The position numbers and the translations under genes are program-made. From Rhynchobatus australiae (lineage: Eukaryota), in assembly GCA_034780895.1 (NCBI GenBank), contig JAUZTB010000033.1, positions 38,493,108 through 38,557,107 of the forward strand: a stretch of DNA of 64,000 nt. Direction: 5' to 3'. Each line of letters starts with the position of its first letter. Positions within the stretch are counted from its first letter, which is position 1. This document shows, piece by piece, positions 9,163-57,479 of this stretch. The notes beneath the pieces were generated by a model that had not been told where the DNA came from, did not search any database, and saw only the letters and a program-made list of their open reading frames with translations.

Positions 9163-12100
9163 TGAGTGCAAGATGTGCTGTACATCTTGTGTGTGAGTGT
9201 CTTGCTGTTTTAATGTCAGGAGTTCATAACAGCCCTATTATGATCGCACATGTAGCATACTAAAAAAAATCAAGGAATAAAATATTTTTCATGCATTGGT
9301 GAAATGCAGGGATTATGAAATGTGCCAAATTCCCTTTCCATCCACAACAATGCTTTCTTGCAGATTTCTAAAGTGTGCTAATAACCTCCAGTGGCAGGTT
9401 CAGGTACTGCATCAGCTCTTCAATCCAAGTGCTGTGCAAATAAGGGCAAAAGAACTCCAAGTGCCAGCAAGATCTCCCTAAAACACACCATATACAATCA
9501 ACTGTATCAGTGACAGCTTGGCACCTTCCCAAATAGTTGTGTATTCAAGCTCCACTCTAGGACTTGAATGCATAATCTAGGTTGACACTTCAATACGTTA
9601 TTGGAAAACTTCTGAACTTTAGAATTATTCTCCCTCGGGATGTGATTTTAAACAGAGATCATCTATATCCATCTCACTAATGCTTATGCCAAATGACGGC
9701 CATTTAATTTCAAAATAATTCATCATATGCGAAGTCTGTGTATTTGGGAAAGTTAAGATGTTCTATAAGCGCATACCTTTTGCCATTTGCTATAGACATG
9801 GCCCCAGTGTTTTAAGCTTTCGACCCATTATTTCCTCCTGCCCTGTCATTCCGACCATTCCATTCAATGTTATTCCTGACCTGTGATTTCCGTGGTCTTG
9901 CTAATCCTGGAACCATCTGATTCTGTGCTATCTTGTGCATTGAAATCTTCAGCTATTCAAGTAGTCACACACTCCTTTACCGATTTTCTCCTCCCTTCTT
10001 CTCCACTAATGATTTCCTCAACCAATTGAGCCTTGCGGAGAAATCTTTTTGTATGTTTATTGAAACAATGTCAATTTAGCTGGAGCCAGTTGTACATCTC
10101 ATTACTTCATAGTGAAATTGACCATGACTTCTTGCCTGACTTTGTCTTCCTGCTTAATTATTTCTCTTGTCCTATGCTCACAGTAACGACCTGATTACCT
10201 GTCCAATGCCCACTCCTCTTCATTCCTTAAGACTTGAATCATCTCAATCATTTTCTCCAATGAAAACCAGATCTGTTATCCTTACAAATCCAACATCCCC
10301 CAATCAACTTATCTTTCAGATTTCTCTGTACATTTTCTATCATGTTAATTTGTCCATTTTAAGATGGTGCTTAAACCAGAACATAGTTGTCAAAACATCA
10401 TCTCACCAGTGACTTTATACAATTGGAAGAATCTGCTTAAAACGACAGTCAGTCTACCTTGAAGCAGACCCCACTAAGCAATCAGTGTGTGTTAAAACTT
10501 GGAGAACTAGGTGAAGGTTGAGTAGAACTGAGCGGCAAATTGAAAATCAGTGGATTGTTGTTTTATGCTTGGATGTGAGAGAATGACATGACTAAAGGAT
10601 GTAAAAGGTTTCACAGTTTTGAGATTTTGAGAAAAGATGATTTAGAGAAGATAGTTGAGGAACCTTGTCAAATGATGAAAGTTCAGGGAAAAAGAAGACT
10701 GAAGTGAATCTAACATTGGAGTAAGGGAAGGACAGAAATCGAAAGTTCAAAGGATCCCTCACTAAAATTGTGTAAATGAAATAAAGACGTGTCATATGGG
10801 GGAGAGTTTTGAGTCTAGCCGTGAAAGAAGAGTTGTCCATCAGAATCAGCTCTTGATCCATGTTGAGAGATGCTAGAAGGAATGTAATGATTTAGTTTTT
10901 GTACTGTGAAAATTAGAAGTGCTAGAAAAATGCAGCCGCGTAGAAGTTAGTGGATATACAATGGAATCCTTAGAAAAGATTGGGTTGAAGGATGTGTGAA
11001 GTCACTGATGGAGAAGTAAAGAACTAATAATAAGCACTGTATTGGAGTATGCAAAACAAAGGACAAAGCACCAATCACAGCATGGATGATATTGTCTCAT
11101 GCAAAACTGGGTAGCCACTAATAGAACTCTGCCTCTGGGAACTCCAAGTATGGTAATTCCTGTAAAAGTATGTAGAGTCAGANNNNNNNNNNNNNNNNNN
11201 NNNNNNNNNNNNNNNNNNNNNNNNNNNNNNNNNNNNNNNNNNNNNNNNNNNNNNNNNNNNNNNNNNNNNNNNNNNNNNNNNNGCTGTGGAGGCCAAGTCA
11301 CTGGGTATATTTAAAATGAAGGTTGATATGTTCTGGAAGACGCATCGAGCTGTGAGCACTGGACAAGGACCATACCAGTGAGTGCTTAATGGATTAGATC
11401 CATAAGCATAATAGGTAAGTATTGGCTTTGATGGTATTAGAGGTAGCAGTTGAAGGGACACAATTTTTCGAGTTCACTAAATTGCTAAAAGGAAGAAAGG
11501 ACCAAGAAAAGAAGAGACTGCAAAAGTTCAATGTTCCAATGTACATTACAACACACCTCTTGACATTTAAAATCTATCTATGTTGGAAGCAATCCACGAA
11601 ATTGATCTAGATCCAGGTAATCTAGAAAATGCTCAGTCACTTAATCTAGAGTCTGTTACATAATCATTCGTGAAGGAACCTTCAGTTTACTGTTATTTAA
11701 TACTATAATGAAGACATTTCACCTTATTAATTAATCATAGGATATTTTACATATATCACCCATTCTCTATTTTTGACCCACTTCCTAATCCATTTAATTC
11801 ATCTGTCAACATTCTATTGCGTCTCCTCATTTGTGAGTGTAAAATCATCAAACATCCTACGAAAACTTCACAAAGAATTCTAGCAGATTTCTGTCACAAT
11901 ATGTTATTGCTCCGAAATCCTTGCTGCTCTTTGAATTCTTTTTCTGCATGCCCGGATATTCTGCTTTTTCTTTGAATGCACTCATCCATTAGAAGACAAA
12001 CTATTTTCCAACTCATTGCAGAGCCCATCTCGTTGCAGTCACTCATTCCTAATTGTTGGGTTTGCCTTGTACCTTGTAACTATTTATTCTTTGTATCTTT

Positions 12101-13309
12101 CCAAACATTTTAAAATATTGATTAACATGATTAGTTAACAAATTCCACTATTATTTTATCATGTGTTGACCAGGATGGTAATGGTGAATTTGATGGGCAT
12201 TTATCATTTCAGTTTTTAATGTTGAAGTGTTGATAAAAATGATCAAGAAATAAAGAGGTTAAATTAATGAGACAAGTATATTATTGAAAGGGAATGGAGG
12301 GGAATGCTGTAAAGCAACGAGTGTTGCAGTAACCCTGTGGTGATGAGGAATACACTGTGTGTTGAGGCTTAGCCTCATGTAGATTGAAAGTTGGCTGCAC
12401 TGTATTGGCTTCTCCACTGGACAAAGAGTGATGCCTCACCAAATAAAATGCTGTGTGAGGTTTGCCTCTGGGTTCAATGATTGTTTTATGCTTTTGAGAT
12501 ACAGCAGGGTACAAAAGAACAGCTCCAGCATTTCCTTACGAGTAGCCTTCAACTCAGAGACGCAAATGCCTCGCTGCACTGGATAATCGCGGTGAAACGT
12601 TACTAATAAATGTGTTAAATCAACAATAAAACAGTTTAATAGAGCTGGAAGTACAATACTTGATAATATCAGTGCTGGGAGTGTATTATACAGTTATAGA
12701 AAATAACAGGGTGTAATGAACAGAGCATTACACGGTAATTACGAGATCCAGAGTGCAGTACACAGGAATTCATAGTTGTGGACTATGTATTTAGCTGAAG
12801 TGTTACATGTAATAATAGTGACCTGGGTTCAGAATGTATATCTTACAGAATAGATGAGAGCATGCTTTTCACGTGAGCCAGAGATACATTGCACATTGAA
12901 AGCGATTTGGGATGTTTCATTCAGCAAAAAGTATCAGTAAACAGCAGATCTGAGGGTGCATTACTGATGTTTGNNNNNNNNNNNNNNNNNNNNNNNNNNN
13001 NNNNNNNNNNNNNNNNNNNNNNNNNNNNNNNNNNNNNNNNNNNNNNNNNNNNNNNNNNNNNNNNNNNNNNNNNATGTTTGAAGGTTAGAGGGAGTGTTGC
13101 CCAGGATAACATGGGATACTACAGGAAAATAGAGCAGAGAATTATCTAAATTTACTATCAGCGTCCTATTTGCGTAGTGCTGGAGACTGGCTCCTTTATA
13201 CCCTGTTGGAGTTTTGTGTCTAACCTCAGTGATGGAACTTGCTTATCGAGTCTTGGGCCTGCACGCATCACACTAACAGCCAATTAGTGCTAATCCGTTA
13301 TCCCACCAG

Positions 13310-13482
13310 GACTTCTATTTCCCGTATGAGCAGCAAAGATAAAATATCAATGCATGACAAGGAGCGCAAGACACTGGAGTCTGTAATGCTGGAGCATGTT
13401 AATGATGAGGAGGAGGATAGGAAGAAGTTGAATGGCTCAAGTTCTGAGGAGGAGGTGCCTCATGAAGCTGAATCAGAGGCTG
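13310..13482 (+). CDS. PPP1R12C: Exon, acidic region: TSISRMSSKDKISMHDKERKTLESVMLEHVNDEEEDRKKLNGSSSEEEVPHEAESEA
   Basis: cccaccag|G ... GCTG|gtaagt; 173 nt, phase 2 to 1. Confidence 0.93.
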
Positions 13483-13789
13483 GTAAGTCAATGATTTCTG
13501 CTTCCATCACAGGGGGGGGGCTTGGAATATCTCTGNNNNNNNNNNNNNNNNNNNNNNNNNNNNNNNNNNNNNNNNNNNNNNNNNNNNNNNNNNNNNNNNN
13601 NNNNNNNNNNNNNNNNNNNNNNNNNNNNNNNNNNNNNNNNNNNNNNNNNNNNNNNNNNNNNNNNNNNNNNNNNNNNNNNNNNNNNNNNNNNNNNNNNNNN
13701 NNNNNNNNNNNNNNNNNNNNNNNNNNNNNNNNNNNNNNNNNNACAATTTAACTAAAGAAGGACTCTTTGGAAGTTTTAAGAAAATATCG

Positions 13790-14265
13790 GAGGAAGTAAG
13801 TGGAGAGGTAGGCTATTTGACTGTCAGTGTCTCTCCACCATTCAGGGGCATCATGGTTGAATTTCTATTATTTTGCTACCCTTAATATCCTTTGATTTCT
13901 GCCCAGAGACAATTGACCTCAGTTTGAATATACTAATCGACCATAAATCCTCAGTCTGCTGGAGTGCAGAGTTTCAAAGAATGAAAATGGTTTCTCCATG
14001 TTGTCCTAAATATTCAGTCCCCTAGCTGAGACTACGATAACTGTTTTTGGACCCCAAGTAGTGGAACGAGTCTTTCAGCCTTGTGAGAAATGTTTGAATG
14101 AAGTTGTCTCTTATTCCTCTAAAACCTGGAGAATGCAGGTCTATTCTTATTCTGAGGACATAACTGTTATCCCAGAAAACAACCCAGTGAACTTTCATGA
14201 TATCACCATCCAAGTTAACTGATGCAGCAGTGGAGTCAGAGCCAGGTCTAACGGAGGTCCACATC
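13790..14265 (-). mobile_element. Very degenerate CR1 3' fragment
   Basis: Residual similarity to other minus-strand CR1 ends in the window. Confidence 0.55.
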
Positions 14266-14402
14266 TTCTGAATTTAATGCTAATAGGATCTGTGAGGATA
14301 GAAAACTTGAAATTACATTAATGGACAATTGACTTCCAAGGGGAGACAACAGATTTCTCATTGCTTCCAGTATTCTCCTGTGCTCCCAGCACTGGTGGTG
14401 TA

Positions 14403-14850
14403 AAAAGGAAACTGTGCATTGCTATAGTGTCCTTATGAGCATTGGGTCACCCCAAACTTCTTTGCTAAAATGGAAATGCTTGGGTGTAATCACTGTGTTA
14501 GTGTGGAAAATGCCGCAGACATTTTGTGCACAGCATTCTCCCACAAACAATATGGTAATGGCCAATCATCTGTTCTTGTAATGTCAATGGAGGGTAAATA
14601 ATTGGCTAGGCACCAGGGATAATTGTCCTGTTCCTTAAGAAATGGTACAATGGGATCATTTAACCAAGAGAATAGGGTCTCAGATTAACATCTCGTTTGG
14701 GAGATGCTTCTTCAACAGTGCAGCTATTTTGCAGAATTTCAGTGGAGTGGCAGCTTACACATTTGTGGTCAAGATTCAGAAATGAGACAAACCTACCATC
14801 CTTCCAATTCTGAGGCAAGAGAACAGTGGTGCCAAATTTGTCACTGACAA
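14403..14850 (-). mobile_element. Near full-length Deu-domain SINE
   Basis: ggagggtaaataattggctaggcaccaggg...atgggatc...aacagtgcagc is the reverse complement of the Deu core, with tail (ttgtgcacagca..tcccacaaac). Confidence 0.72.
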
Positions 14851-15384
14851 TTGGCAGCCTTTAAACTAGGATAGGAGGCACACACAGCTCCTGGTCATGT
14901 GGTGCTGTTGCCCCTATACTGAGGATTAGGTCCAATTGGAGGCCTGGTATCTGCAATTTCCTGAGTTGTAAGATCCTATTGCAGTCCCTGAAATGGGATC
15001 TGTACGGTCGACTTGCGTGGTTTTCAAAGTAGGGGTTGAGACCTGCCAGGTGAGTCACAGGATGTTTAAAAAGGGGCCACTCAAACTGATTAGGCTGGGG
15101 TCAGTGGTGTAGGGCTCAAGGGACAAAGGTAACAAGTAAGAAAGAGGCCCTGGGCCTATAGTGAGAGGACTGGAGAGAAGCCTGGGAAGCACAGGGTCTG
15201 CAGACCAGAGAACTACACATCCTACCTCCACCTTACTCTAAACCTGCCCGCCTAAGCGGCATGTAAATATCTGTTCTCTCTGATACTGCCTTTTGGAGTT
15301 TAACCAAAGTGGTTTGATATCATCTACATTAGATTCGTAGTTAACTGTTCATTATTATTGGGTCATGTTGATGAAAATGACTTG

Positions 15385-15418
15385 CCTGCAAAAAGGTTTG
15401 AAGACCAGTGGTCTAGTG
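15385..15418. mobile_element. Possible single hAT-Charlie terminal inverted repeat
   Basis: aaaaggtttgaagaccagtg followed by NTCTAGAN-like gtctagtg; partner end not found. Confidence 0.35.
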
Positions 15419-15748
15419 ACCTTTGGTAAAGTAAATTAGGCCTTGAGAACCTGCAGGACTGGCCAGTGCTGGTAGTCACAGATGGTCACATGGTCTGAAT
15501 CATATCTTGCTGGTTCATGACTCCCAGACAGGTTGGCATAACCTTACATGATAAGTGTCTTTCAGAAAAAGCCTGCTGGAGCTTGAAAGTGTGATTTATC
15601 TCTGCATTTTGTTGTCTCTTCCATATTAAGTATATCGGTAGTGATAAGACTCTCGAGGGCTATTTCATTTGGGGTTAGAAATAGGAAACTTAGATTTGCC
15701 ACACTCTTCATTTGTATTCGTTGACCACTGTGTCTTTTGGTTTGACAG

Positions 15749-15843
15749 AGAAGGCCAAAGTCCGACTTAACATGAATAACCTCACCAAACGGAGCATGAC
15801 AACTGACTCCATCCTCCCATCCACTACTGCAAGTAACAAGAGG
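15749..15843 (+). CDS. PPP1R12C: Exon: (E)KAKVRLNMNNLTKRSMTTDSILPSTTASNKR
   Basis: ttttggtttgacag|AG ... AGG|gtatgt; 95 nt, supplies the required phase 1 to 0 bridge. Confidence 0.88.
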
Positions 15844-16049
15844 GTATGTAACAAGCAAGGAGTAACTGATTGATGTTTGAGTTTGGAACCTGCAGTGCCA
15901 TCTCCTGATTTAGTTTTTTTAAACTTCCAGAGTGGAGCCAGGATCTGGTGGGATAGAAACTGGTTTGACTGACTCTCTCATTGAAGATATGGCATTTTTT
16001 TTCATTCTAGATCAAACAAAAGAAAATTCAGAATTGCTGGAAATGCTGA

Positions 16050-18860
16050 TTTGTTTCCCATGAAGAATGCTGCTTGCTTTCTATTGGAGGGTTGCAAGGT
16101 TTTTTGTTACAAGGTGTGCTGTACTGTGGTTGGTCAAGGGAGGTTGCCATGGCTGGATTGTGCAGTGTTTATCTTCTGAGAGCTGTTGCGTTTCATTTCA
16201 AGAAATACTGCATTGTTTGCTGTGATGCTGCACTTTGCTGTGGATTGACCCCTTCTGTTTTCTATTGTGTAGCTGCTGCAGATTTGCTGTTGCAAGAAAG
16301 GATGTTGCATTTTGCTGTTCAGTGATGTGTGGTTTGAACGGCAATTCTTGTTGCAGCTAATGCTGTTGGTTTGATGTTGCAAGGATTGATGCTATGCTTC
16401 CTACTGCAGTCAATGATGCATTGTTTTGTGTTGCTGGGTGTGGCATTTTGTAAGAAATGTGGTGCCATGTTTCATTCTGCAGGCCGTTGCAATGTTTTGA
16501 TGAATCATAGTATTGTTCAAATTGAAAGTGCATTCATAACCCTTCTGTGAGAGATGCCTCTTTGGCTAGGAGCGTCTTCAGAGCTGCCTCTGCTCTATCA
16601 CCGTAAAATTTGTTGTGGAAACTCTTGGCCATTGTTTTCTCCATGGTGCACTTGTTTTTTTTTCCGTCTCTTTGTGTGCCATTTTAAGAAGGCTGCTCTT
16701 TGAGGACTGCTGCGTAACTTTGTGGCATTGTTTGTTGTTGCAGTGTTTTCCCTAGCAACTGGTGTGAGGTAAAGTTATGGGTTTGCCTTAGATAGTCTTA
16801 AATTGCACGGCTCCTTGCCTGTGACGCTCATGAGTTTGCTGGGACTGCCCACTATCTAACTTTGCACCTCAGGGAGAAACAATAGGGGCCCCTTTCTAAT
16901 CTGACCTGGGGGTTGCATTTTTCACATCCTTTGCACTTCTCAGAATTTGTGGGTGGAACAGATGAACACTTTGGAGTAAGATCATTATAAAATCAAGAAG
17001 CTTGTTTATTTCACTTGGTACAGAATGGCACTTACAGACTTCCTTATCAGCCCCCAGCTGTGAAAACTAAGCTTGGCCTTCAGTGCTGGCAAGCACGTCC
17101 CACTTGCAGCCTTAGTTGAAATGGACAAGTTAAGTGCCTTGCTCTTTTTATTACAGGAGAGCTCCGGAAAATAAGCTTGACCCTTACTTTATATATGGAG
17201 GTCATGGTTTACAGACCTGGCCAATCTCAAGTCTCTAAACAGCAGGTTCTCGCTGGGTCCCTTTTCCATTTCATCCCTGCTGAACTCAGATCTGTAATGA
17301 TCGTAGCAATGATAGGTCCAAATGGTGACTTGGAGTTTTGAGAGAAAATAACGAGGCCACCAGCTTCATTGTCCCTGATAGTACTGAAGGGTAACAACAT
17401 TAGTTTTGGTCAACTACCTTAAATGCAAGGCGGATGATTTTTGATTTTAATGTAAATGAAGTTACTTCAATATAACTTTCTCCTCTGAGTAAAAATGATC
17501 AAAAGTGAAGCCTGGAATGGTATAAATGTGACCCATTATCATTATTATTGCATTCTGTCCTATTCTAAGGGATACAGTGCTTCATTCTTCTGCATTGTTG
17601 CTGCTATATTACTTAAGTATTTCCTGCTCTGAATATTGCAGAGTTCTCCTACCATGCTNNNNNNNNNNNTCCCTTTTTGGAATGCTGCATTATTTACTCT
17701 TAAGGTGAGCATCAATTTATCTCTTCTATGTGTGAGTTTTCTCATTGCAAGAAATGCTACAGCATTCTCGTTGGCTGCACTGTTAATGCTGCATTACTGC
17801 TTCTGGTGAGATAAGCTGATTTTTTTAAAGACTTCTGCAGGGATGTTGCATTGTTTCCTGCTGTGAAGTTTGCTGTGTTAGGTGTTGTAAGGGTTGCTCC
17901 ATTATTTTGTTAAAGGTGGTGTTTTAATTTTCAGGTTTATGCATTGTTTTGTGTATAAGAAAAGGGCAAAATTGCCTTTTCCAATGGAGATTGCAATACT
18001 TCCTTTTCTGAGGAATGCCACTGTTGGTGCTTGTGTTTGAAATGTCTCATTCAGATGGCTATGCAGTGAAATCTTCAGGATTTTTTTTCATGTGGGGTCC
18101 AGTGATAATTGCTGCATTGCTTTTTGTAGAGTGCTGCACTCCAGTGAAGATTGCTCTGTCACTTTTGAAGATTGTGATTTTTGTTTTATTCTGAAGAATG
18201 TTAATTTGTTGTCAGCTGTGAAGGATGCCATGCTAGTGAGCAATACTGTGATATTTCCAGGATAGGTAACATGTGACATGAGCTTTGATTTATGTTATGA
18301 AGAATGCTGTGCCATTTGGCTGAAGAGTTTTGGATCATTTCTGATCAAAGATACCACATTGATTATAGTGCTTTGTTGTTTCTGGTTGTTGTAAAGAGCG
18401 CTGCCATATTTCCATTGAAGAGTGCTGAGTTTTGTGGAGATTTTTGTTTTGTTTCCAGTGAAGAATACTGAATTTCACCTTCCGAAGATTTTGTCTTCCA
18501 CTGGATTGTGTGAAAAGTGTCCCATCGAACCTTATGAAGAGCACTGCATAGCTTCTTATGAAAAGAGCAGTGTTCTTTCCAATGAAGGATGCCACATTGA
18601 TTTTTATGAAGAATTCTGTATTGTTTCTTGTGAGGAGTGGTGTTGTCTACAGTTATGAGTCTTGTGTTGTTTCTGGTGAAGAAAATTGCAAAGGTTATTC
18701 TGAAGGTTATTATATCTCGATGTGAAGAATGCTGCTTAGTTCTTACAATGAGAACTGCCATATTATTTGTGAATAGTGTTCTGTTGATTCATGATTTGAA
18801 GAATGCTGTGTTGGATCTCAAAAGAATGCAGCTCATTTTCTTGTGAGGAGAGCTGCTTTA
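16050..18860. repeat. Degenerate 24-bp minisatellite, consensus about TGTGAAGAATGCTGCATTGTTTCT (blocks about 16050-16780 and 17740-18860)
   Basis: Six consecutive units in exact 24-nt register at 18509-18652; many scattered gaagaatgctg words. Confidence 0.75.
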
Positions 18861-18892
18861 TGCAAATAATTTTTAATTAGTTTGTGCCAGTG

Positions 18893-19023
18893 AGAGTCAC
18901 AGAGTTGTACAGCATGGAAACAGGCCCTTTGGCCCAACTGGTCCATACCGACCAAGATGCTCGTCTGAGCTAGTCCCCATTTTTCAGCACTTGGCCCATA
19001 ACCCTCCAAGCATTTCCTATCCA
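18893..19023 (-). mobile_element. CR1 3' terminal fragment
   Basis: tacagcatggaaacaggccctttggcccaac... is the reverse complement of a CR1 3' UTR. Confidence 0.8.
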
Positions 19024-20431
19024 GGAGATGTTTTTTAAATTGGGAATGAGCCAATCCCAGTCCCATTCTGCACAGAATTTAAAATGTAGCTCTGCAGGTA
19101 TTCAAGTAATATTATAATCTCCAGACTTGGGTATCCTTTTGTATTTAGTATCTATGTGCTGACTTCCCAGGACTTGGAAAACCTGGTGCCACAGGTAACT
19201 GGGAAGTCTGATTCAACAAGAAAAGGAATTTCCAGCATTTAAAGTGGACTGAGTAGACAGTGAGAATTTCCTCGGTCCCCTCCAAATGTTCCTCTGAAAC
19301 AAACTGAAGCTCTCCTCCATCACCACAATCCCCACTTCTGCTGCCCCACCACTGCTGATAAGCAAACCCCCTCCCACCGCCACCGTAACATTCACCTCTG
19401 CCCTTGCCCAACCACACTGTGATGTGCAAATCCCCACCCTGTACCCTGATTTTCTGCTTGGTACTCTGAGCTCTCCCTCCAACCTGTGACCATTACCAAT
19501 ATATGGGAGTAAGCCAGTGATGCAGCAGTGTACTACTGATTTTCTAACCTCACAGTTGGCCAGTCCTTTGGTCAGGCTGAATGCTGTTCAGGAAATGGAG
19601 CAAAATCTAATTAATTTGGACCTTTATATCCAGAAGGAACTCTACACTGGTGGCTTTCCTAGGTTCAACCTCAATCCTCAAACATCCTTGCCCCCACCTC
19701 TCCATATGTATCAGGGTCCACCATTCTATGGGCAGGAGGATTGTTGTCATGATGCCACACTGTGAAGCTCCATCTATTAATGAATCGATCATAACCATAT
19801 TTTAAAAAAAACTATCAGTAGAACAGAACGTCCCTCTAATTAGGTTAATACTTTCTTTATGATCTATACATTTCTGGCAGGTACCACAGTTCAACCATGA
19901 TATTATTTGACTTCCCTCTAACAAGCAATAAATGTTCTGAGAACACTCTTTGAGTACTAGAATTTTACGTCCTGTTGTATGACAGTAGTTCCTCCCTGGT
20001 GATGAATGCTGTGGTCTAGGTTGGCTGGAGAATAAGGATTGATGTTTTGAGAGTATCCCTTTTTGCCAGTGTCCACGAATGATGGTCCAGGTAGAAATGG
20101 GAGCATACTTAATGTTTCCTGTAATTAAGATTTGATTGAAATTATTTTTTACCTTTTCAGGAGAGTCAAAGCTTCACTGAACATTATCCCAGCAGTATTA
20201 ACTCCCTGTTTTATTTAGGCATTGACTGATGAATGCTACCGTGATATGTAGGTTTAATTTATTGATGGCATGTTCTATTGTGGATTGAATTGTTCATTTA
20301 TATGACGGCCATGCAGAATGAGGATGTCTTTCCTTTATGCCCTTTCTTGCCTCCCATTCTTTCTCTTCCATTCTCACCTGTACCTCATCTGACTCTCTCT
20401 TTTTCTCCTCTTGCTCTTCCTCTGACTACAG

Positions 20432-20548
20432 TTTGACTTCTTTACTCCTTTCCTACCTTTTTGTCAGCCAAGTGACCCAAAGTCATGGAGACAGGGCCTA
20501 CGCAAAACCGGCATTGTCTTGGTCCCCCAAAGAGGTCAAAAGGCAGCG
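20432..20548 (+). CDS. PPP1R12C: Probable alternative cassette exon: FDFFTPFLPFCQPSDPKSWRQGLRKTGIVLVPQRGQKAA (second in-frame acceptor at 20468)
   Basis: About 100-nt pyrimidine tract, ctgactacag|TTT ... GCG|gtgagc; 117 nt, symmetric phase 0; SWRQGLRKTG resembles AWRTALRKTG of the next exon. Confidence 0.8.
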
Positions 20549-21479
20549 GTGAGCTTCTTGCATGTTGAGGTTTCCATTCTCGTTGAAGCTTTTGGTGNNN
20601 NNNNNNNNNNNNNNNNNNNNNNNNNNNNNNNNNNNNNNNNNNNNNNNNNNNNNNNNNNNNNNNNNNNNNNNNNNNNNNNNNNNNNNNNNNNNNNNNNGTG
20701 CTGCATGAGCACGTGGTTTGCCTTGCATTCATCCGCCTTGGTCTTCCTCTCTATTTCAACCTTTCGAGTTTTGGACAAGCAATTTCAGAGACACAAATGA
20801 AAAATTACTCTAAGCAATAGAAAGCCCAGCGATCTAGAACACAGTCTATTCATGTTGGACATTCTCATTGATACTCTGCCATCTTTACTGCTTAAAATTG
20901 ACCAGAAAATTACTTTTTAAGACAGTTTCTAAGGGGGTGGTTGAGGATGGATAAGTATGTATTAGGTTTCCCTTCCATCTCACTTATGTCCTTTCATATA
21001 AACGTCATTGCATTGTTGAAAGGAGAGAGGTTGTGACCTCACTGAAAACAAGTATTGATGGCATTGTATACTAGAGGTGGAAAAGAGGTTAATGTCACAC
21101 TGCCTTTTTAAATTAGATTGAAATGTTTTTGAGGATACTGAAGAGTACCATTTTATACTGGAACTTAGAAGTGTTCAAGAGAATAAGAGACCATTGCACT
21201 CCAACTGGCTGGTCCCAGGATTCTGAAAGTTTGCATGTACATTTTTATTCCTTGTGCTCCCAGTTCACTCTATCTGTTAGATATTGGTGCCACCCCAACC
21301 CAATTTCACTAATTCTCTGCTCTGTAGGTTCACCTGCTGTTCTGTAAAGTTAAATCTAAAACTGCTGATCTTCTCTATTCTAAAAATGAGCTTCTCTCAC
21401 TTTCTTGCAGAATTAGTGATTGCTATAGATGTCATGAGGTTTCAATTTGTCCAATTGCCTTACAATCTCTTCTGAGCAA

Positions 21480-22030
21480 CTGCATGCTACATTCTTTTCC
21501 AGTGGAGATATTTTCAGGTTCTATAACTGAATGACAAATACAAAATATCAACCAACAATGTTGAAGATGCCCCTTCTGAAATGTGATGATCTGAATTGTA
21601 CTTTAAATTCCAATTGAGGTTAGTCTAGCACTTTGCAAGGTCATCATTAAGTCCTGAGATCTTTCCTCTCTTTATTGCTAGTTTGATAGTTTTGACATTA
21701 CTCACCAGAACTGGGCACCATTCTGCTCCCCACTCCCCCACCTCCTTTGTCCTGTCCTATTGTGCGTCATGTGCCCACACTGTTTATCCTTCAGATTTCT
21801 TGTTATTTTGCACTTAGCCACCCTAGACATCTGCCACTACTTGGCCCAACTTCACAAATTATGCATATCTCTTTCCTTGGTCTTTTATTTATGGCTATTC
21901 TTCAAGAGATTTGTTATTATCAGAAAGCTTATGCAATGTTGGTTTTATTCCAAGTTTCAAATCCTTTATGAACATTGTGAACAGCAGTGACCCAAATGCA
22001 TATCTCTCAGGCACATCACTAATAACCCTT
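21480..22030 (-). mobile_element. Very degenerate CR1 RT fragment
   Basis: Residual RT-region words in reverse orientation; boundaries approximate. Confidence 0.45.
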
Positions 22031-22319
22031 CAGTAGAAATAATCCAGAAACGATGAAAATTACTAATATTCAGACACATCCAAGACCAGCATGGAACCTG
22101 TGCTTAACTGCAAGCAACTGCAGGAAACATTTAAACTTCATTTGAATAGGGATTTTTTGCACTATTTGCCTACATCTGATTGCCTATAGTTAAAATACAC
22201 AGCATTGGTACCTTGATTGTTCATTCTTTTTCATCCCCTGACCAATTGTTTTCCCTTTCGGCCCCTAAGTAGTGCATACTTTCCCTCTGTCTGCTTTTAT
22301 TCAAGGTTTCCACTTGGTC

Positions 22320-22525
22320 TCTGATTGGCACATGATTCACTCGGTCTCATGATTGGTATTTGTTCTCTCTCAGTCCTTAATTGGTGTGAGTTCCTTCTTA
22401 CTCTCTGGTGCATATTCTCTCTCTATTTTTGATTGGCACACATTCCTTCTCTGCTTCCTGCTTGGTGTATGTTCCTTTTCTGCCACTGACTGGTGTTTGT
22501 TCCCTCTCTCCAATGGTTTGTGTTC
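22320..22525. repeat. Degenerate 25-29 bp minisatellite with GATTGG core (about 8 units)
   Basis: Units gattggcacatg.., gattggtatttgttc.., aattggtgtgagttcc.., gattggcacacattcc.., gcttggtgtatgttcc.., gactggtgtttgttcc.. Confidence 0.75.
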
Positions 22526-23039
22526 AACTTTGAAGCTCCAGTTACTGTACATTTACTCCAAGTCCTCAGGTTGCCGGTCAAACAATTACAGTCAAACATT
22601 TGCAGATATTTGCGTGACCTTCCCCTTGGGCTTAGCCAGTTCTGAATGTGGGGTAGCTGTAATAACTGTAAGAGAGGAGGTTAAATACACGAGGACCCTG
22701 AAGAACAAATGCTAATTACTGGGGCAGGACTTCTCCTGGCAGCCATTTGGAGCAAAATTATGGAGGCCTTCTGAATGATCAATCTTTTGACTTCACTGGA
22801 ACCATTAAAAGATGTTTCTGTCATATTTCATGACATTGTCAGCACAGTTTGACCAGAGGGAAACTTCCCCCATCCATTTAATGCTTTACTTTATGGTTGA
22901 GAATTTATTTTTGTTTGGGGGTTAGCTGCAGCCTGCTGGAGGATTTTACTACTTTTTCAGGTTGATTTCTTGAGATTGCTATAAGTTTGCTGTTTCCTCA
23001 AAATGGACAAGCTGGCAGAGAACAGCAATCGAGAACCAA

Positions 23040-23240
23040 AAAACTGTAGATGTTGGAAATCTGAGGGAAAAAAAAACAGAAGATGCTGGAAATATTCAGC
23101 AGGTCAGATCACAGCAGAGTCAGGTTTCATGTTGATGACTGTTCTGATAAAAGGCCATCAACCTGAAACATTACCTCCGTTTTTCTCTCCACAAATGTTG
23201 CCTGACCTGCTGAGATATTTTTCCAGAAACTTCTGCTTTT
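23040..23240. mobile_element. Penelope-derived fold-back (inverted pair of terminal repeats)
   Basis: cagaagatgctggaaatattcagcaggtcag ... ctgacctgctgagatatttttccagaaacttctg are inverted copies. Confidence 0.7.
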
Positions 23241-23629
23241 ATGATAGAGGATATTTTAGATTGCTCCCACCTTTGTTGTCAAGAAGGAGGGAGGTAAGCT
23301 TCTCTGCCAGNNNNNNNNNNNNNNNNNNNNNNNNNNNNNNNNNNNNNNNNNNNNNNNNNNNNNNNNNNNNNNNNNNNNNNNNNNNNNNNNNNNNNNNNNN
23401 NNNNNNNNNNGCCAGCAGCTTCCCTTTTTGTTTGGTTATGCTACTAGTTAATCTAGCTGCATGTTTTTTCTGTAGGCTGCGAGATAGCTTAGTTTATGAG
23501 ATGGTGCCAGGAAATAGCACAAGAGATGAGGGCTCTCACACTTGACCTTAACCAACAGGTAAGAAGAGCTTGTTGCTTGTATGGACCAGAGTAATCTGAT
23601 CTTGACACCAAGATACAGAAGGCTTTTCG

Positions 23630-25756
23630 TGTAAGGGAAGTGGCACTTGTAGGGAACAGTACAGCAAGGGTATAGCAGTAGTATATTCTGTGTAATTATA
23701 CAGTACTATATATAAAGAGTACAGCGACAGTCTATTCTGTTCTCTGCAATTTGCAGCAAAGAGTACTAGAGGTTATATTTGCCCAGTGCCAGGTAAAGGA
23801 TATCTTCTTGTGGTTTGAAGTGGAAGAGAGAAGTTCTACATAGGATCAGACAACACATATAAAACTAGAAAGAAGATTATGTGGAGAAACCACGAGGATC
23901 TAAGGTTTAAATGCCAGTCTAGAATCTCACAAGTAACTGGCTTAAAAGCTATGATGTTTCATCATTCTAGCACAAAAAAAATGGAGAAAAATAACCAACC
24001 CTTCCATTGGATTAAAAGTATTGTATAGTGTTGTCAAAAAGAACAAGCTTGAAGATTGGGAGGGCTTTTCTGAATCAGCAGAGATTGACCAAAAACCGAT
24101 TGAGGAGAAAGGTAGATTGAAGGAACACTAATAGTAAACTTAAGAGTGTAAGGCCTTTAGCCAAAATGTGAAAATTGGGGAAATAAAACCATACTTAGGT
24201 CCCTTAGAGCTTAGGAGAGGAGAAATTGAAAACATGTTTTATATCTAACTTCACAGTGTTACCAAATAACATATCAAAATAGTATGGAACTTAGAGACTG
24301 ATGGGAATGCAGAACTTAATGTAATTTAATAATTCGTAAAGCAAAAGTACTGAATAAATTGATGGGATTAAAGCTGATAGATTTAAATCTCCCAATGACA
24401 CAACCCATGGATTGTAAAAGAGGTTGCTGCACAGACAGCAGCTATCATGGTAGCAGTCTTCTCATACTCCCAAAGGTTATGACCGCCCTACTGGAATGTA
24501 CAAATGTAACACAGCTATTCAGGGAAGGAGGGCGAGGAAAAGTGTGGAATTATAGATTGTTTAGCCAAGCAGCAGTTGTCAGAAGGTACTGGGATTCATC
24601 ATTAGGGAAATGGTAACAGGGGACTTAGAATGTATATAAACGTGATTAAGCAGAGTCTGCATGGTTTTATAAAATAAGGAAACTATGTTTTAAAACAAAA
24701 TAACTAGATTATCAGATAAAGTAATGGGCGGATGTAAATAGAGATGTTCAAAAACTGTTCTTTAAAGTATCATGCAAAAGGTTATTTAAACAAAATAGGC
24801 TGATGGTTTGGGGCAATAACTTAGCACGGATGAGGCATTGGTTAAATCAGAACATGAATAAATTAGTCATTTAAAGGCTGTAACAAAAAGAATACAAAGA
24901 GGTGTGGACCCAACTATTTAAAGTCTATGTTGATGATTTTGTTGAAAGACCAATGTGTTATGTATCCAAGTCTGCTGATACCAGTTTAGATGACAAAGTC
25001 AACGGTGGCAAAAATATAAACAATTTGTAAAGAGAAAGATTAACTGTGGATGAGAAAATGGCAGTTATGGGGAAATGTGAGGTTATTCACCTGATTAGGA
25101 AAAATTGGAAAATATTTTTAAATGGTCACTAGAAAATGTTGATGTTTAGATAGATTTGGATGTTGTTGTATGCAAAACACAGGCCGTTAACATTGAAGTA
25201 CAGCAAATAGTGCAAATGTTTTATCAGCTTTTATTGCAAGGATATTGTTGTACAAGATTAAGAAATCTTGCTATAATTATACAAGAGTTTGCGGGAATTG
25301 TGTGCAGTTTTGCTATCTCCATTTAAGGAAGATTCTACTTGTCTTAGAGACAGAGCAAAGGTTCACTGGATCGACTCCTAGATTAAAATGTTAATTCACT
25401 GTGATGGTTGGGATGGACATGTACTCTTTGGAGTTTAGACAAATGAGTTGTGTTGATTGAAACTTAGCATTCATCCTGATTCAAGTCACTTATGAATTAT
25501 GTGATTGTCCCTCTGGCTGGAGACTATTGAATTGGGGCTAATGGTCTCACAGAAGAGGTAGGTCAAATTGTGTCCTTTTCCATGTATTCAATGTGGAAAT
25601 CGATAGATTCTTGGATTTTTAAGGGATTCTTGGAATTCGGGAATGGAGCAGGTAAGTGGAGTTGAAGTCGAGGACATGCCATGATTTGACTAAAAGATGA
25701 AGCAGGATCAAGGGCCAATTAGACCTAATCTTATTTATTTTATTATGTTCTTATGC
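23630..25756 (+). mobile_element. Long, old, internally deleted CR1 LINE
   Basis: Decayed CLPGARVKDI-like (23780), GNYRP-like (24545), QHGF (24658), KFADD-like (24968) and GKCEVIH segments, ending in a ttatgttcttatg tail. Confidence 0.8.
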
Positions 25757-25958
25757 TATTATTAGAGCAAGCTCAGTCTCTCCACCACCTTTGATGTCAA
25801 TGGAAGGTAAGCCCCCTAACTCTGCTGGCTTTTTTATTTTACTGCTATGCTTAAGCAGGTTCTTTTCTTTTCCATTGATCACACCTTCAGCTTGAGGCAT
25901 TTCAGTTCTGGGTGAATGAGTCCCATCATTTGGTAAAGTGTCTCCTTTGTTCACCCAG

Positions 25959-26171
25959 TTTTCAGGCCCTCCTGCCAAAGCGGCAACCCATGAAGAAGAG
26001 AAGAAAGAACAGCAGTCTCCAGCTGCATGGCGAACTGCCCTTCGCAAAACAGGGAGCTATGGAACCCTCAACAACTTGCAAACACCGCAGGAGGAGCAGA
26101 AAGGGAAAGAGGTGGGAATTGTCCGGTCAGCATCGAGCCCCAAGCTGACTCTGGCTGAATCCAAGGAGAAG
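25959..26171 (+). CDS. PPP1R12C: Exon: FSGPPAKAATHEEEKKEQQSPAAWRTALRKTGSYGTL...IVRSASSPKLTLAESKEK
   Basis: ttcacccag|TTT ... AAG|gtttgt; 213 nt, phase 0 to 0; motifs equivalent to MYPT1 S445 (LRKTGSYG) and S472/S473 (RSASSP). Confidence 0.96.
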
Positions 26172-26325
26172 GTTTGTGAGAGGAATGTTTAGGAGCATTG
26201 CTTGAGAGAGAAGTTCAATTAGTTCTCCACTTGGTACTGATAGGTAGGTCAGTGATCAGGCATAGGTTTAGACTAATCGGCACAAAGAGCTATACAACGA
26301 TAATTGAAAAGCAAAAATGCCGAAA

Positions 26326-26510
26326 TCTGAAATAAAGCAGAAACTGCTGGAGAGACTCGGGAGGTGAGGCAGCATCTGTGGAAAGAGGAACAGAGTTAAT
26401 GTTTCAGGTTTTGATAAAGGATCATCAGCCTGAAATGTTATCTCTGTTTATCTCCACAGATGCTGCCTGACCTTCTGAGCTTCCCTAGTATTTTCCTTTT
26501 TTATTTTAGG
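26326..26510. mobile_element. Penelope-derived fold-back element, about 85-bp arms
   Basis: aggcagcatctgtgga...aacagagttaatgtttcagg / cctgaaatgttatctctgtt..tccacagatgctgcct. Confidence 0.8.
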
Positions 26511-26754
26511 TAGGGTGATTTTTTTGTTTGAAACACAGTATTGACCCAAGTTAATCTAAAAACTACTGTCGAACATAATGGTGGACACAGATGTAATAAT
26601 AACATGCAATAGATAATTGGATTAATCTCAACAAGAAAATGATGGTGGCTTTAAGGAAAGAGCAGGGGACTGAGAATAAACGTAATCTTTCAAAAAGCTA
26701 GAACGGGCATGAAGAGGTATAAAATTACAATGGCAGGGTTTTTAATGAAATTCA

Positions 26755-26890
26755 AAAAACTGTAGATGGTGGAAATCTGAAATAAAAGCAAAAAAATGCT
26801 GGAAAAACACTCAGCAGGTCAAGCTTTGAACCATCTACGGAAAAAGAAATGGCTTTAATATTTTGGGTTGAAGGCCCTTTATTGGACTGA
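26755..26890 (-). mobile_element. Penelope-like terminal repeat fragment
   Basis: ctgtagatggtggaaatctgaaataaaagc...ctcagcaggtca, same family. Confidence 0.65.
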
Positions 26891-27044
26891 ATTGTAGCAG
26901 CATAGCAGGATTGTTCTTTCTGAAAAGTCCATGCTGGCTATGAGCAGAGATATCTTGATGGTTCCATTTACCTGTTTCTTGCTAATGCCCCTGCAGATAT
27001 GAAGAGGTATGTGAGGAGAAAACTCTTTCTTACTTAGAAGACCC

Positions 27045-27730
27045 TCGGAGTAAGAATTTTTTTTCTCACATACCTCTTAATATCTTTTGACCAAAATCAT
27101 AAATATGTCTCACAGCCCTTGAATCATCAGTGAAAAGAACATCTTTCCTCTCTTTACCCAGTCTGAACCAATCATCATCTTGTTTATTTCCAATGCATTT
27201 GTTCTCATCTTTTTTGCTTTAAAGAGTGAACCTGCTTTCTCCAGTCTGATCTTGCAGCAGAATTCTTCACCCCGGGAACATCCTAGAAACATTTTCTCCA
27301 CTCCTTTTAGGATCTTTGCATTCTTCCTCGATTGTAATGATCAGTTGTGGTGCACACTAACCAGTGTTTTGTGCAGTTTCAACATAATTTCCCTGCCTCT
27401 GTTAATACCTGGATCCCATTTGCTTTTCTAACGATTCATTCAATGTGCTCTTTCACTTTCAGGATATACAGACACCCAAGTCTGTTCGTGAATATCCTTT
27501 GCAACACTTCCATTTAGCAAACACTTCTTCTCCTAAATCTTCCTTGCAGTGTATCTCTTCACAATTTTCTGTATTAATCTTCCTCTGCCACTTGTTTGCC
27601 CTTTCAGCCAGCCTATCTATTGCCTTATAGCAGTCTTTTGCAATTCTCTTCACCGTTTACCACAATTGCAAGTTTTGTGTCATCCACACATTTGGAAATG
27701 TTACCCTGCAAACCCATGTCTAGGCTTGTT
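27045..27730 (-). mobile_element. Degenerate CR1 ORF2 3' portion
   Basis: ORF track minus-strand RLAERANKWQ..NTENCEEIH..DLGVC matches CR1 RT C-terminal motifs. Confidence 0.75.
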
Positions 27731-29138
27731 ACCCATCAAAACATTTCAATGTGCTTCATTATTAAGTAGAGCTTGGCTCCAGGTACATTCAGGCAATGGG
27801 AGGTAGTCAGCATTCCTGATTTAATTAGAGGTGGATTTTAATGAATGTATTAATGGAAGAAATGCAAAGAGATCGATTTCAAAAGGAATCCATGAGCTTC
27901 ACACAGCTGAAGGCATGTTCCCAGTGATGGGCTGCTCAAGAGGCTGGAATCAGAACACTGGAGATCCCTCAGAGGATTTTAATGCCAGTATTGATTAGAA
28001 AAGTAGGGAGGAACGAGGTCATGCAGGAATTTAAAATTGAGCATTAGAATGTTACTAATAGGAAGCCACTGAGCACAGAGTGTGAAAATGAGAATGGGGT
28101 GTGAGTTGCAGGGAACTGAAGTTTGAAATAAATGTATGGACAATGAAAGATAGGAAATTGGTCAGGATTATAAAGCCCTGCTTGAACTACACCTAAGGTA
28201 GTGCTCTGGAAGCCAAATATGTAGTGATGGAACATGCATTTGGCAGAATGATACCTGAATTTCTATGAAGGCTGCATTACTTGAATGTATGGGAGGATGG
28301 GCTCAAAGTTTTTGAGATAGGAAAAAGAACTGATAGAGAAAAACTATTTCCATTGATTGGGATGTCTAGGATTAGGGGGTGTAGTGAAAAGATTGAAGCC
28401 AGACCTTGCAGGAAATTTCTTTTACAGGTAAAGGTCAGTCAAATTTTTGATTGAAACCCTTACTGGAACTGACTTGATGTACAAGGCAATGTGGAGGAAA
28501 ATGGATTGAAGCAATATTTTACCTTGTATGTCATACTTCAACCTCTTTCTTTCTCATTGTGCACTCTTATGTGAAAGTGTATATTGAGAAAGAGAGACAG
28601 AGGCTGAGAAATCCAATCATAGGGTCCCACATTTTAGCCCATCACGCAATTTGATTTCAGCACAAAAATGAAGTGGACTAATAAGTAGGAGTCTTATTGC
28701 AAGTTGCACGGTCTGCAATTCTGCTTCCAAGTTCAGTGTCTGATACACTAAAGCACAAAGAGGCCCCAATATGTGTAGTGGCTGTTCCTTCACAGTGCTT
28801 GTGGGAACTCAGCCTAAGCAGGTCACAGCCCACAGAGTCTGGTGCTGGGAACCTGGCTCTCCCCACTCCCAAATTCTCAATCAGCCCTTGACCAACCTGA
28901 CTTCCAACCCAGCCACAACCTTTCTGGCATCAAAACCTCACCCCAACTCCCCTATAGAACTTGTCCTATTCTCTCCAGATCTAATTCCTCTACCAGTCTG
29001 TCCTGGCTCTGGCCTAACTAGTACCAACTTCAGTTGACTGAGCTCCTTTCTAATCCATGACCTGTCTGCTCTCCCTTTGCCTCAGTTTCAGCTACGTTCT
29101 TCTCACCCCCAAAGTCTGTCTTGTGCAACCCAGTTCCA

Positions 29139-29872
29139 GACTCAGAATCAAAATCAGGTTTATTATTACCAACTTAATATGACATAAAATTTGTTGTTTT
29201 GTGGAAGCAGTAANNNNNNNNNNNNNNNNNNNNNNNNNNNNNNNNNNNNNNNNNNNNNNNNNNNNNNNNNNNNNNNNNNNNNNNNNNNNNNNNNNNNNNN
29301 NNNNNNNNNNNNNNNNNNNNNNNNNNNNNNNNNNNNNNNNNNNNNNNNNNNNNNNNNNNNNNNNNNNNNNNNNNNNNNNNNNNNNNNNNNNNNNNNNNNN
29401 NNNNNNNNNNNNNNNNNNNNNNNNNNNNNNNNNNNNNNNNNNNNNNNNNNNNNNNNNNNNNNNNNNNNNNNNNNNNNNNNNNNNNNNNNNNNNNNNNNNN
29501 NNNNNNNNNNNNNNNNNNNNNNNNNNNNNNNNNNNNNNNNNNNNNNNNNNNNNNNNNNNNNNNNNNNNNNNNNNNNNNNNNNNNNNNNNNNNNNAGAATG
29601 CTCTCAACCATACATCTATAGAAATTTGCAAGAGTCTTTGGTGACATACTAAATCTCCTAAGACTCCTAACGAAGTAGAGCTGCTGGCGTGCCTTCTTTG
29701 TGGTTACATCAATGTGTTGGGTTCAGGATAGATCTTCTGAGAGGATGACTCTCAGGAACTTCAAGCTGCTCACCCTTTCCACCACTGACCCCTCAGTGAG
29801 AACTGGTGTGTGTTCTCCTGACTTCCTCTTCCTGAAGTCCACATTTCAGTTCCTTGGTCTTGCTGACACAAT
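29139..29872 (-). mobile_element. Rex1/Babar-type LINE 3' portion spanning an N gap
   Basis: Minus strand reads KFL.VI.SEDLS.TQHID..TKKARQ.LYFVRSLRRF.MSPKTLANFYRC.VESI; tail cagaatcaaaatcaggtttatt. Confidence 0.85.
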
Positions 29873-30394
29873 GGTGAAGACCTTGATAGAAAAGTCTTAA
29901 GTTGTGTACGGTCTGTTCATTAATGCAACATGTGCTGGGTCTTGTGCATCAGAATCCCCACTCAGTCAGAAGTGTTGTTGGTTTGCTTTGAACTTGCAGT
30001 TTAATTCATTTAAATAGGTGCCTTTCAATTTCTTGACCAGGTGTGGGAGTAAAACTCCATTCTGCACCTAATCTGGAAATGGTTGATGCAGTTTGTGGAG
30101 CAAAATGGTGATAGGTTTCTGCACAGACTGTCTATGATCCGGAGGCAATTCATCGGTATGGTATTGGGACTTCAAGCTGCAACTGACCCATCATATAAAT
30201 ACTACAGGGAACCTGAATGGGGCAGCACCAAGGCAGAGTTATGTGCAATTCATTTATAGTTTTTGGTAAAACCCTAACCTGTTCCATCTAATACTGTTAT
30301 ATTGACTCTGTTAGAATTGATTTCCATTGTTCAACTGTTGTGTTGATTACTGACTGTGTTTTAAGTTCAATCTTTATTTGCTGGTTGCCCTTAG

Positions 30395-30480
30395 GAGAAG
30401 GAACCTCGGTTAGCCCGTGTTCCACCGACTCCAACAAGAAAGCTCTTCACTATTGGAGATGCCAATGAGGACAAATCTAG
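30395..30480 (+). CDS. PPP1R12C: Exon: EKEPRLARVPPTPTRKLFTIGDANEDKS(S)
   Basis: cccttag|GAG ... AG|gtaggc; 86 nt, phase 0 to 2. Confidence 0.92.
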
Positions 30481-31615
30481 GTAGGCAGACAAGCTGCAGG
30501 AAATAGTTCACAGGACTATATTTAGTTTCTGTAATGATGGTTTGCAAAAAACTACCACTAAATGTTAATACTCAGTGATCTTGCGGCCATGTAACACCAT
30601 GCTATGCGAGGACCTAGAATCTGAATTAAAGATTAATGTGATTTTAAACCTGATTTAATCTGCTTTGCCAGTGCAGGGAACCAAGAGCAATCATAAATTA
30701 CCAGAGGACAGTAGAATTGAATAATAGCTTTAGCTACAAATTACGAATGAGTATATGGTTCCCCCAACTCCCATCTGGTAATATTAGAAATTATTATTGT
30801 TAGTTGTATACAAAAGGTGTTAGTGATTTAGAAAAATATGATTCCAAGATTCTGGTTGTTGTAAAATGGTAGATCATGGGGACCAGAAATAATAGATCAA
30901 GGCTGTTCAGTGGTGATGGTCCATGCATTAGATTACAACATTTGAATAAGTAACTACACTATTAAAATTAAGGTCGTAAACACCAGACTGTCCCCAATTG
31001 GACTCATTGATTTGAGATCTGGTGAAATAAGAAAATTAAAGCTATCCCTAATTTCCCACTGCTTTCAATCCATCTGACAAGTGCATTCTTGTGCATATCG
31101 GGTAAGAATATGCTTGGACCTGATTATAGTGAAGGCATATTGAACAACCTGCCAACACTTATTTCATTGGACTGATTGGATGGAATTAGAGGGAAGATGA
31201 TAGGCCCAAAGTGTATCCCAGGATGAGTTGTTAAGTTCAATGAGAGAATATAAGGAATGGTGGAAATTACAATGGTACCAGATCTAGCATGATAGGGAGA
31301 GGGGTAGAGCGTGCCTAGTTTGGGGAGAAAAAGCTTCTATCCAATTGTTTCAAGGTTTGAAAATACTTTGCTAAAATTTGACAAATATTCATCTCTCAAA
31401 CTTGCCTCTAAAACACCTTTCTGTGGCCAGGGACACTCTGTGTAATGTAGTAAACTAAAATATATTCAGGAAACTTTGAGTCTTGTATCTCAGCAAATTT
31501 GTGCTTGTGTCTGAATAGTTTACAGAGGTTGAAAGCACTTTTCAAAAAAAACCTATTTGCCAGGTCTTTCTCCAGGGCCAGCTTCTTCCTGTGTGATCCT
31601 TGCTTCTTCTTGCAG

Positions 31616-31813
31616 TGATTCTGCAGCCCCATTGGCTCGAAGTGCCTCCTACACAAGGCAGCGAGAGGATGACTCTGGCATCCTGGCCCGGAGCTCATCA
31701 TACACACGTAGACAGACAGAGCTGGAGAGCAACAAAAGGGATAAGGACCTCAACGACACTCTGCCGAGCAGCACTGGCATCTCCACAGCAGCAGTGCCTG
31801 GTCATCCAAAGAG
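31616..31813 (+). CDS. PPP1R12C: Exon: DSAAPLARSASYTRQREDDSGILARSSSYTRRQTELESNKRDKDLNDTLPSSTGISTAAVPGHPK
   Basis: ttcttgcag|T; SSSYTRR motif as in MYPT1. Donor placed at AG|gttttt (weak) because phase 2 is needed; 198 nt. Confidence 0.85.
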
Positions 31814-57423: not shown

Positions 57424-57479
57424 GTATGGATCATGGCTTCCAAGTTCTGTAATGCAAGTCCAATATAGCCCATGAAGTA

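Follow-up and report, generated by a model that had tools for sequence, protein, structure and literature searches.

A ray homolog of MYPT1 exon E9+ carries a serine-less repeat of the S445 motif in an apparent fourth PPP1R12 paralog

Introduction

The closest described counterpart of the exon studied here is E9+ of human PPP1R12A (MYPT1), which lies between E9 and E10 and was reported by Saldanha et al. 2022 (PMC9367544; Ensembl PPP1R12A-223). In the accessible sections of that paper, its size is given as 117 bp in the supplement and as 32 added residues in the main text. According to the same sections, E9+ is included in about 5% of pooled GenBank RNA-seq reads, falls below 0.1% in endothelial, smooth-muscle and platelet data, was negative by RT-PCR, and is called conserved in some vertebrates by the authors. 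These sections contain no function, motif repeat, Ser-to-Ile change or paralog comparison for E9+. The accessible parts of PMC4552530, PMC5325614 and PMC10783575 likewise hold nothing on the cassette exon, and a search of the open-access literature, outside which most subscription papers lie, found no functional study of E9+. The central-insert (E13/E14) and leucine-zipper (E24) cassettes are also alternative exons that tune MYPT1, but they occupy other positions, are well studied and do not repeat the S445 motif.

S445 itself is encoded in exon 10. According to the accessible parts of PMC11576189 and PMC3969223, NUAK phosphorylates this residue, which results in the binding of 14-3-3 and in reduced phosphatase activity, and the first of these sources treats S445 as a routine readout of NUAK activity. 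The same residue is also a LATS1 site, for which activation was reported (PMC3849777, accessible part); phosphorylation of S445 may therefore act in either direction.

An earlier note had proposed, for a stretch of 64,000 nucleotides from the ray Rhynchobatus australiae (hereafter the window), a hidden cassette exon that duplicates the S445 motif but lacks the serine. This exon resembles human E9+, as far as the latter is described in the accessible sources, in its length of 117 nt, the slot between E9 and E10, phase 0/0, the GTGAG donor, the WRQGLRKTGIVLVP core, a downstream TGCATG and its character as a minor, frame-preserving cassette. It differs from E9+ in that it lies in a different paralog, possesses a conserved second acceptor that creates an 81-nt form, and follows a longer AG-free tract; in rays, there is also an optional exon upstream of it (termed exon X below). 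With the S445 segment of MYPT1 exon 10, it has W-R-x-x-L-R-K-T-G (positions -9 to -1) in common, whereas it carries Ile at the acceptor position, continues with [VI]-L-V-P instead of [YF]-G-A-L, and has no Leu at +4.

Results

The host gene encodes a protein of the PPP1R12 (MYPT) family, and its exons (Table 1) are near-identical to a sawfish protein in tblastn searches. The N-terminal ankyrin exons were located in the window by tblastn, and Pfam Ank families are recognized on the close shark protein P0002. The window does not include exon 1; in close relatives, the N-terminal RVxF motif reads RVKF. Four PPP1R12 loci are present in the ray genome (G000), on contigs C33 (the window gene), C42, C65 and C80. 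They were compared in an unrooted tree of 22 rows based on the ankyrin region and the RRSTQ exon, which included no outgroup and left out P0025, P0035 and P0040, for which the cut points were not found. In this tree, C42 clusters with PPP1R12A (support 99/96) and C80 with tetrapod PPP1R12C (100/99), while C65 adjoins PPP1R12A; the latter locus reads LRKTGSH, as does mouse Ppp1r12b. The window gene forms a clade of its own with shark and ray 'PPP1R12A-like' proteins (100/99), and the split (A,B)|(C,D) is supported by 97/92. Two other assignments were rejected by the tree: the window gene as PPP1R12C, of which C80 is the ray ortholog, and the window gene as the PPP1R12A ortholog, given its separate clade and the grouping of C42 with A. 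Judged from the tree, the window gene represents neither A, B nor C, each of which has its own locus in this genome, but a fourth PPP1R12 paralog.

Among the proteins compared, this paralog occurs in cartilaginous fishes only, where it bears the NCBI name 'PPP1R12A' or 'PPP1R12A-like'. We found no earlier description of a fourth MYPT paralog in the open-access literature, a search outside which most subscription papers lie. A troponin gene adjoins the C80 locus, as is also the case for human PPP1R12C. Troponin-family matches were seen at C33:32769177, C65:24.4-24.6 Mb, C80:1.03 Mb and C63:32.6-33.1 Mb; three of the four contigs with a PPP1R12 locus thus carry such a match, as does C63, which fits a shared paralogon. 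Elsewhere in the gene, an exon at 40730-40862 (SHLRLKAIGRSYSAQDF...) is present in the Chiloscyllium isoforms X1 and X2 and missing from X4, and is therefore another cassette of the paralog.

The cassette exon was described in the earlier note as a symmetric phase-0 exon of 39 codons behind a very long pyrimidine tract, and this description is accurate. Its translation gives 39 stop-free codons that include WRQGLRKTGIVLVP, it is bordered by a cag acceptor and a GTGAGC donor, and both neighboring exons join it in phase 0. The acceptor is preceded by a 108-nt AG-free zone with 85% pyrimidine over 100 nt and ranks second of the 1848 YAG sites in the window, directly followed by the internal acceptor at 20468 (rank 3). 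The YAG context with the highest pyrimidine content in the window (89% over 100 nt) is found at about 39300-39400 and probably represents a simple repeat. In the PPP1R12A gene of the ray, the corresponding acceptor (L007:889-905, minus strand) shares 14 of the final 16 intron bases with that of human E9+. The attribute 'hidden' was overstated, since the exon is annotated in isoforms of related sharks and its human homolog has been published.

Table 1. Coordinates of the PPP1R12 gene features within the window
Feature	Position	Strand	Description or basis
Host gene, ankyrin exons to C-terminal coiled coil	1534..63591	+	PPP1R12 (MYPT); both ends beyond window
Upstream exon (E9 equivalent)	15749..15843	+	End in phase 0
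Optional exon X	17705..17805	+	101 nt, out of frame in window; 99 nt in relatives
CU-rich pyrimidine tract, free of AG, with cag acceptor	20322..20431	+	Acceptor scan
Cassette exon, long form	20432..20548	+	117 nt / 39 aa, phase 0/0; homologous to E9+ of human PPP1R12A
Cassette exon, short form	20468..20548	+	81 nt / 27 aa; in-frame internal acceptor; motif retained
Core motif W-R-Q-G-L-R-K-T-G-I-V-L-V-P-Q	20486..20530	+	Sequence, alignments
Cassette Ile codon	20513-20515	+	Position equals Ser of next exon
GTGAGC donor and TGCATG at +11	20549..20564	+	Sequence
Second downstream TGCATG, at +154	20702..20707	+	Sequence
Downstream exon (E10 equivalent), with WRTALRKTGSYG	25959..26171	+	Start in phase 0
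Ser codon, S445 equivalent	26055-26057	+	Inside downstream exon
RRSTQG inhibitory-site segment	48914-49006	+	tblastn
C-terminal PRKG1-interacting coiled coil	63484-63594	+	tblastn; PF15898 on P0002

Three variants of the exon, namely long, short and skipped, are found in the isoforms of sharks and rays, where all counts refer to annotated gene models. The Mustelus cluster comprises eight isoforms, five of them long, one short (X4) and two skipped; the four isoforms of the Scyliorhinus cluster are divided into two long, one short (X2) and one skipped. In Pristis, all three members (3/3) contain the short form after a 33-residue exon X. RNA evidence came from four of the eleven listed runs, all of a relative (organism A), which were aligned to the window; no RNA run of the window's own species was among those listed. 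The skip junction 15843^25959 was covered by 4, 2 and 2 reads in three raw RNA runs of this organism (18-24% of each read), and it is also present in an organism A contig with a depth of 7.6. In contig 3 of run X1 (depth 5.96), 20467-20547 directly follows 17704-17804, so that this contig represents the short form; this run was tagged 'probably DNA' by the tool, yet it contains exon-exon joints. No inclusion junction above the listing threshold was observed in the three raw runs, in which the cassette bin reached about one read's depth, in one run only. The long form and the joint 20548^25959 are absent among the joints listed for the organism A runs. Thus, of the splicing pattern that the earlier note had proposed, skipping and the short form appear in the RNA of a relative, but neither 15843^20432 nor 20548^25959 is among the joints listed. 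Taken together with the long, short and skipped shark models, the skip junction and the short-form contig support a spliced and conserved cassette, and we conclude that it is a genuine alternatively spliced in-frame exon.

A TGCATG, which we take to be an RBFOX-type element, follows the cassette within 100 nt in each of three genes: at +11 in the window, at +79 in ray PPP1R12A and at +75 in human PPP1R12A (the latter counted by eye). The ray PPP1R12A cassette has a second copy at +231. None of the 19 other donors of the host gene is followed by TGCATG within 200 nt. An upstream CU-rich tract combined with a downstream TGCATG is the layout of PTB-repressed, RBFOX-activated exons. From this arrangement, we lean slightly towards a tissue-restricted inclusion of the cassette that would be mediated by the pyrimidine tract and the downstream TGCATG. 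In the accessible part of a supplementary table of PMC5989265, the cassette is not among the three Ppp1r12a rows, which concern E13, E14 or E24; similarly, in the splicing table of PMC5062968, the two rows examined, out of five, concern E13, E14 or E24 and not E9+.

Exon X is spliced to the short cassette in the Pristis models and in one organism A contig. It encodes a hydrophobic stretch, and joining it in the genome studied here would lead to a frameshift and stops. The window copy may represent a poison exon, an exon in decay or an error of the assembly. Its inclusion in the conserved unit was rejected because it is found in Pristis and organism A only, is more diverged and is out of frame here. 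Some further irregularities were observed around the cassette. One organism A contig (depth 6) uses an alternative acceptor at 25966, 7 nt inside the S445 exon, which would shift the frame. In Chiloscyllium isoform X2, a donor internal to 25959-26171 removes the RSASSP (S472-type) segment. The stretches 18893-19012 and 23038-23214 belong to interspersed repeats of high copy number, to which thousands of RNA reads and contigs map.

The cassette is by no means restricted to the window gene. A second copy in the ray genome (G000:C42:45886775-45886885) lies inside the PPP1R12A gene, in the same slot. Among the matches listed (120 listed; 492 matches, 2721 candidates), the cassette occurs in PPP1R12A from sharks to mammals, including birds and a turtle, with E values of about 1e-22 against amniote PPP1R12A isoforms. 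The 39-residue insert that the earlier note mentioned for predicted PPP1R12A isoforms thus exists, in human E9+ as well as in amniote and shark isoforms. The cassette was also found in a teleost and in PPP1R12C (MBS85) of frogs and lizards, the clade that is sister to the window clade in the unrooted tree; in frog PPP1R12C, it ends with QRGQKAA. Teleost-type cassettes (P0157, P0158-P0161) read LRKTGISLVP, with a Ser one position past the Ile. The cassette HMM found no match at the ray PPP1R12B (C65) and PPP1R12C (C80) loci, whose relevant introns are interrupted by N runs (17, 9 and 496 nt at C65; 60 and 119 nt at C80). A HMMER search of cluster representatives, which often lack the minor exon, returned nine matches, of which the two named ones are vertebrate, and no non-MYPT family, named lamprey or named invertebrate. 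Because the cassette occupies the same slot in A, tetrapod C and the fourth paralog, it should predate the split of A from the C/D lineages, in agreement with the earlier note; we infer that this split dates to the genome duplications.

We then compared codons. Between the cassettes of the window and of ray PPP1R12A, there are 13, 8 and 20 differences at codon positions 1, 2 and 3, respectively, and 15 successive core codons encode identical amino acids despite nine synonymous changes. Synonymous changes therefore dominate the core. Organism A and the window differ at one position in the 81 nt of the short form, at seven positions plus a 2-nt gap in the 99 nt of exon X, and at 5/178 and 8/201 positions plus gaps in two intron pieces. 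The cassette occurs in 22 distinct contexts, all of which share W-9, L-5 to G-1, I0, L+2 and V+3, and 21 of which have P+4. Ile directly follows LRKTG in all 151 cassette proteins (those longer than 100 residues), a set that was collected by cassette likeness and hence biases the invariance upward. These patterns indicate that the cassette is under selection at the protein level. It could be argued instead that the exon matters mainly as RNA, through splicing that is regulatory or takes place at a low level, or that it is a neutral spacer with a peptide that has no specific partner. Such a role would fit the low inclusion levels of the tested human cells and of the three raw organism A runs as well as the apparent absence of the exon from ray B and C, but it is highly improbable, since the core changes between paralogs are mostly synonymous, both forms are in frame, and the invariance of residues extends from sharks to mammals and over three paralogs.

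The Ser of LRKTGSYG was identified as S445 by its position: it is residue 484 in seven of seven mammal-type 1069-residue isoforms checked, and subtracting the 39 residues of the cassette gives 445. The assignments made in the earlier note thus hold for the serine itself, for its role as a NUAK/14-3-3 site (PMC11576189, PMC3969223; accessible parts) and for the Ile at the equivalent position of the cassette, which is shared by all 151 proteins. The alignment score of the cassette with the next exon is 49 in the window gene and 58 in PPP1R12A, values that were reached by none of 20000 shuffles; for the comparison with the rest of the protein, the score was reached by 0/3000. Within the motif, 21 of 28 bases match between the two exons, both exons start in phase 0, and the motifs are spaced by exactly 39 residues in 13 of the 144 two-copy proteins. 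But the likeness extends over 12-16 residues only, the exons measure 117 and 213 nt, their 3' ends differ, and shuffle tests do not exclude convergence. The old exon duplication claimed by the earlier note is thus likely rather than proven: based on the motif match and the shared 5' phase, the cassette was quite probably born by duplication of the neighboring S445 exon before A, C and the fourth paralog separated.

The same note had also described the cassette as a copy that the kinase cannot control. The serine is indeed absent, but this wording went too far, because the LRKTG Thr is kept and the cassette is added to the S445 exon in 144 of the 151 proteins, so that S445 control remains. The other seven are PPP1R12C models from three frog species (P0028, P0031-P0033, P0040-P0042) that contain the cassette without the exon bearing the S445 and S472 equivalents. 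They represent a true swap of the cassette for the S445 exon, which is not seen in shark models. Moreover, with the retained Thr and a conserved hydrophobic tail of its own, the cassette is more than a serine-less motif and may constitute a distinct motif instead of an inactivated copy.

The function that we favor, with some reservation, is that of a second docking site. The short predicted W-R-x-x-L-R-K helix, shared by both copies, would bind a putative partner. In the constitutive copy, phosphorylated S445 and 14-3-3 would mask this helix, whereas the copy with Ile and the IVLVP tail would still be free to bind and would thereby keep the phosphatase engaged while NUAK or LATS is active. A helix is predicted for cassette residues 19-26 (SWRQGLRK) in a low-confidence model (mean pLDDT 70). 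Of 18 exon-10 contexts, 7 have L or F instead of W at -9, which weakens the idea of a shared partner. Database searches with the cassette gave no lead: Pfam recognized no family on it or on the next exon, a PDB sequence search yielded two weak matches (E 0.18 and 0.26) that we take as chance, and the best ESM Atlas match reached 0.78.

Sites of AMPK-family kinases such as NUAK combine a Ser/Thr acceptor with hydrophobic residues at -5 and +4 and basic residues at -4/-3. The cassette agrees with this pattern at -5, -4 and -3 and deviates at 0 (Ile) and +4 (Pro), whereas the next exon agrees at all of these positions. It is conceivable, if unlikely, that the Ile copy is a pseudosubstrate decoy that fills the groove of NUAK or of another AMPK-family kinase recruited via PP1-beta and so slows phosphorylation of S445, 39-50 residues downstream. 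L-5, R-4 and K-3 of the AMPK-family consensus (PMC11576189, accessible part) are present in 22/22 contexts, and CagA, a non-phosphorylatable mimic, provides a precedent by inhibiting MARK2 (PMC6890249, accessible part). But the consensus Leu at +4 is Pro in 21 of the 22 contexts, Ile is bulky for an acceptor position, and the invariant LVP tail would be left unexplained. A literature search for a hydrophobic determinant at -9 of AMPK-family kinases found nothing relevant.

The conserved basic residues may also be read in other registers. The arrangement R-x-x-x-R-x-T-G-I resembles the inhibitory sites T696 and T853 of MYPT, and the exon could accordingly add kinase control, instead of escaping it, through phosphorylation of the LRKTG Thr, which is invariant. 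In this comparison, the T696-type window ranks 1-3 of about 1000 windows in five of five proteins and the T853-type window 3-4 in three of the four proteins where it was matched, and tetrapod C reads RQSLRKTG next to RQSRRSTQG. No score is significant alone, with 5-89% of shuffles reaching them; the T853-type window ranks 13th in Anolis and is unmatched in Hyperolius, and the constitutive copy has the same Thr, all of which make a new phospho-Thr site very unlikely. DFRxxL repeats of MLCK, LKKT of WH2 domains and 1-5-10 calmodulin anchors are known motif classes. A binding site for the cytoskeleton or for a calcium sensor that has nothing to do with S445 control, either an F-actin motif of the MLCK DFRxxL or WH2 LKKT type or a 1-5-10 calmodulin anchor formed by W, L and the new Ile, is likewise quite unlikely. 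The W..L....I spacing, the basic charge and the predicted helix would be compatible with such a site, and an actin-binding repeat is described for MLCK (PMC2196421, accessible part), but this remains a resemblance only, with no Pfam family, no meaningful PDB match and Atlas values of at most 0.78.

Discussion

Parts of this picture were already known, since the exon is annotated in sharks and was published in human as E9+. What is new here is its host, the apparent fourth paralog, its occurrence in the same slot of A, C and the fourth paralog, its nature as a serine-less S445 repeat with an invariant LVP, and the shared downstream TGCATG. Our overall reading, which we put forward tentatively and with slightly less than even confidence, is that the exon is the fourth-paralog homolog of E9+, that it is likely a duplicate of the S445 exon, and that it likely adds a docking motif that would not be switched off by the S445 kinases and 14-3-3. 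A more far-reaching reading is rather doubtful: an RBFOX-tissue-switched exon older than the vertebrate MYPT paralogs, which as a serine-less twin of S445 would act as a NUAK/LATS decoy or as a 14-3-3-independent holder of a partner, and which would give rise to a kinase-resistant isoform that was overlooked in humans and can replace the S445 exon outright in frog PPP1R12C.

For practical work on MYPT1, it may matter that the cassette core overlaps the peptide that was used to raise a pS445 antibody, according to the accessible part of the source, so that related reagents may cross-react. For the family as a whole, the presence of the exon in the fourth MYPT paralog of sharks and rays places its origin earlier than the divergence of the A and C/D lineages, and a conserved S445 repeat without the serine predicts a tissue-specific isoform that would be under altered NUAK/14-3-3 control.
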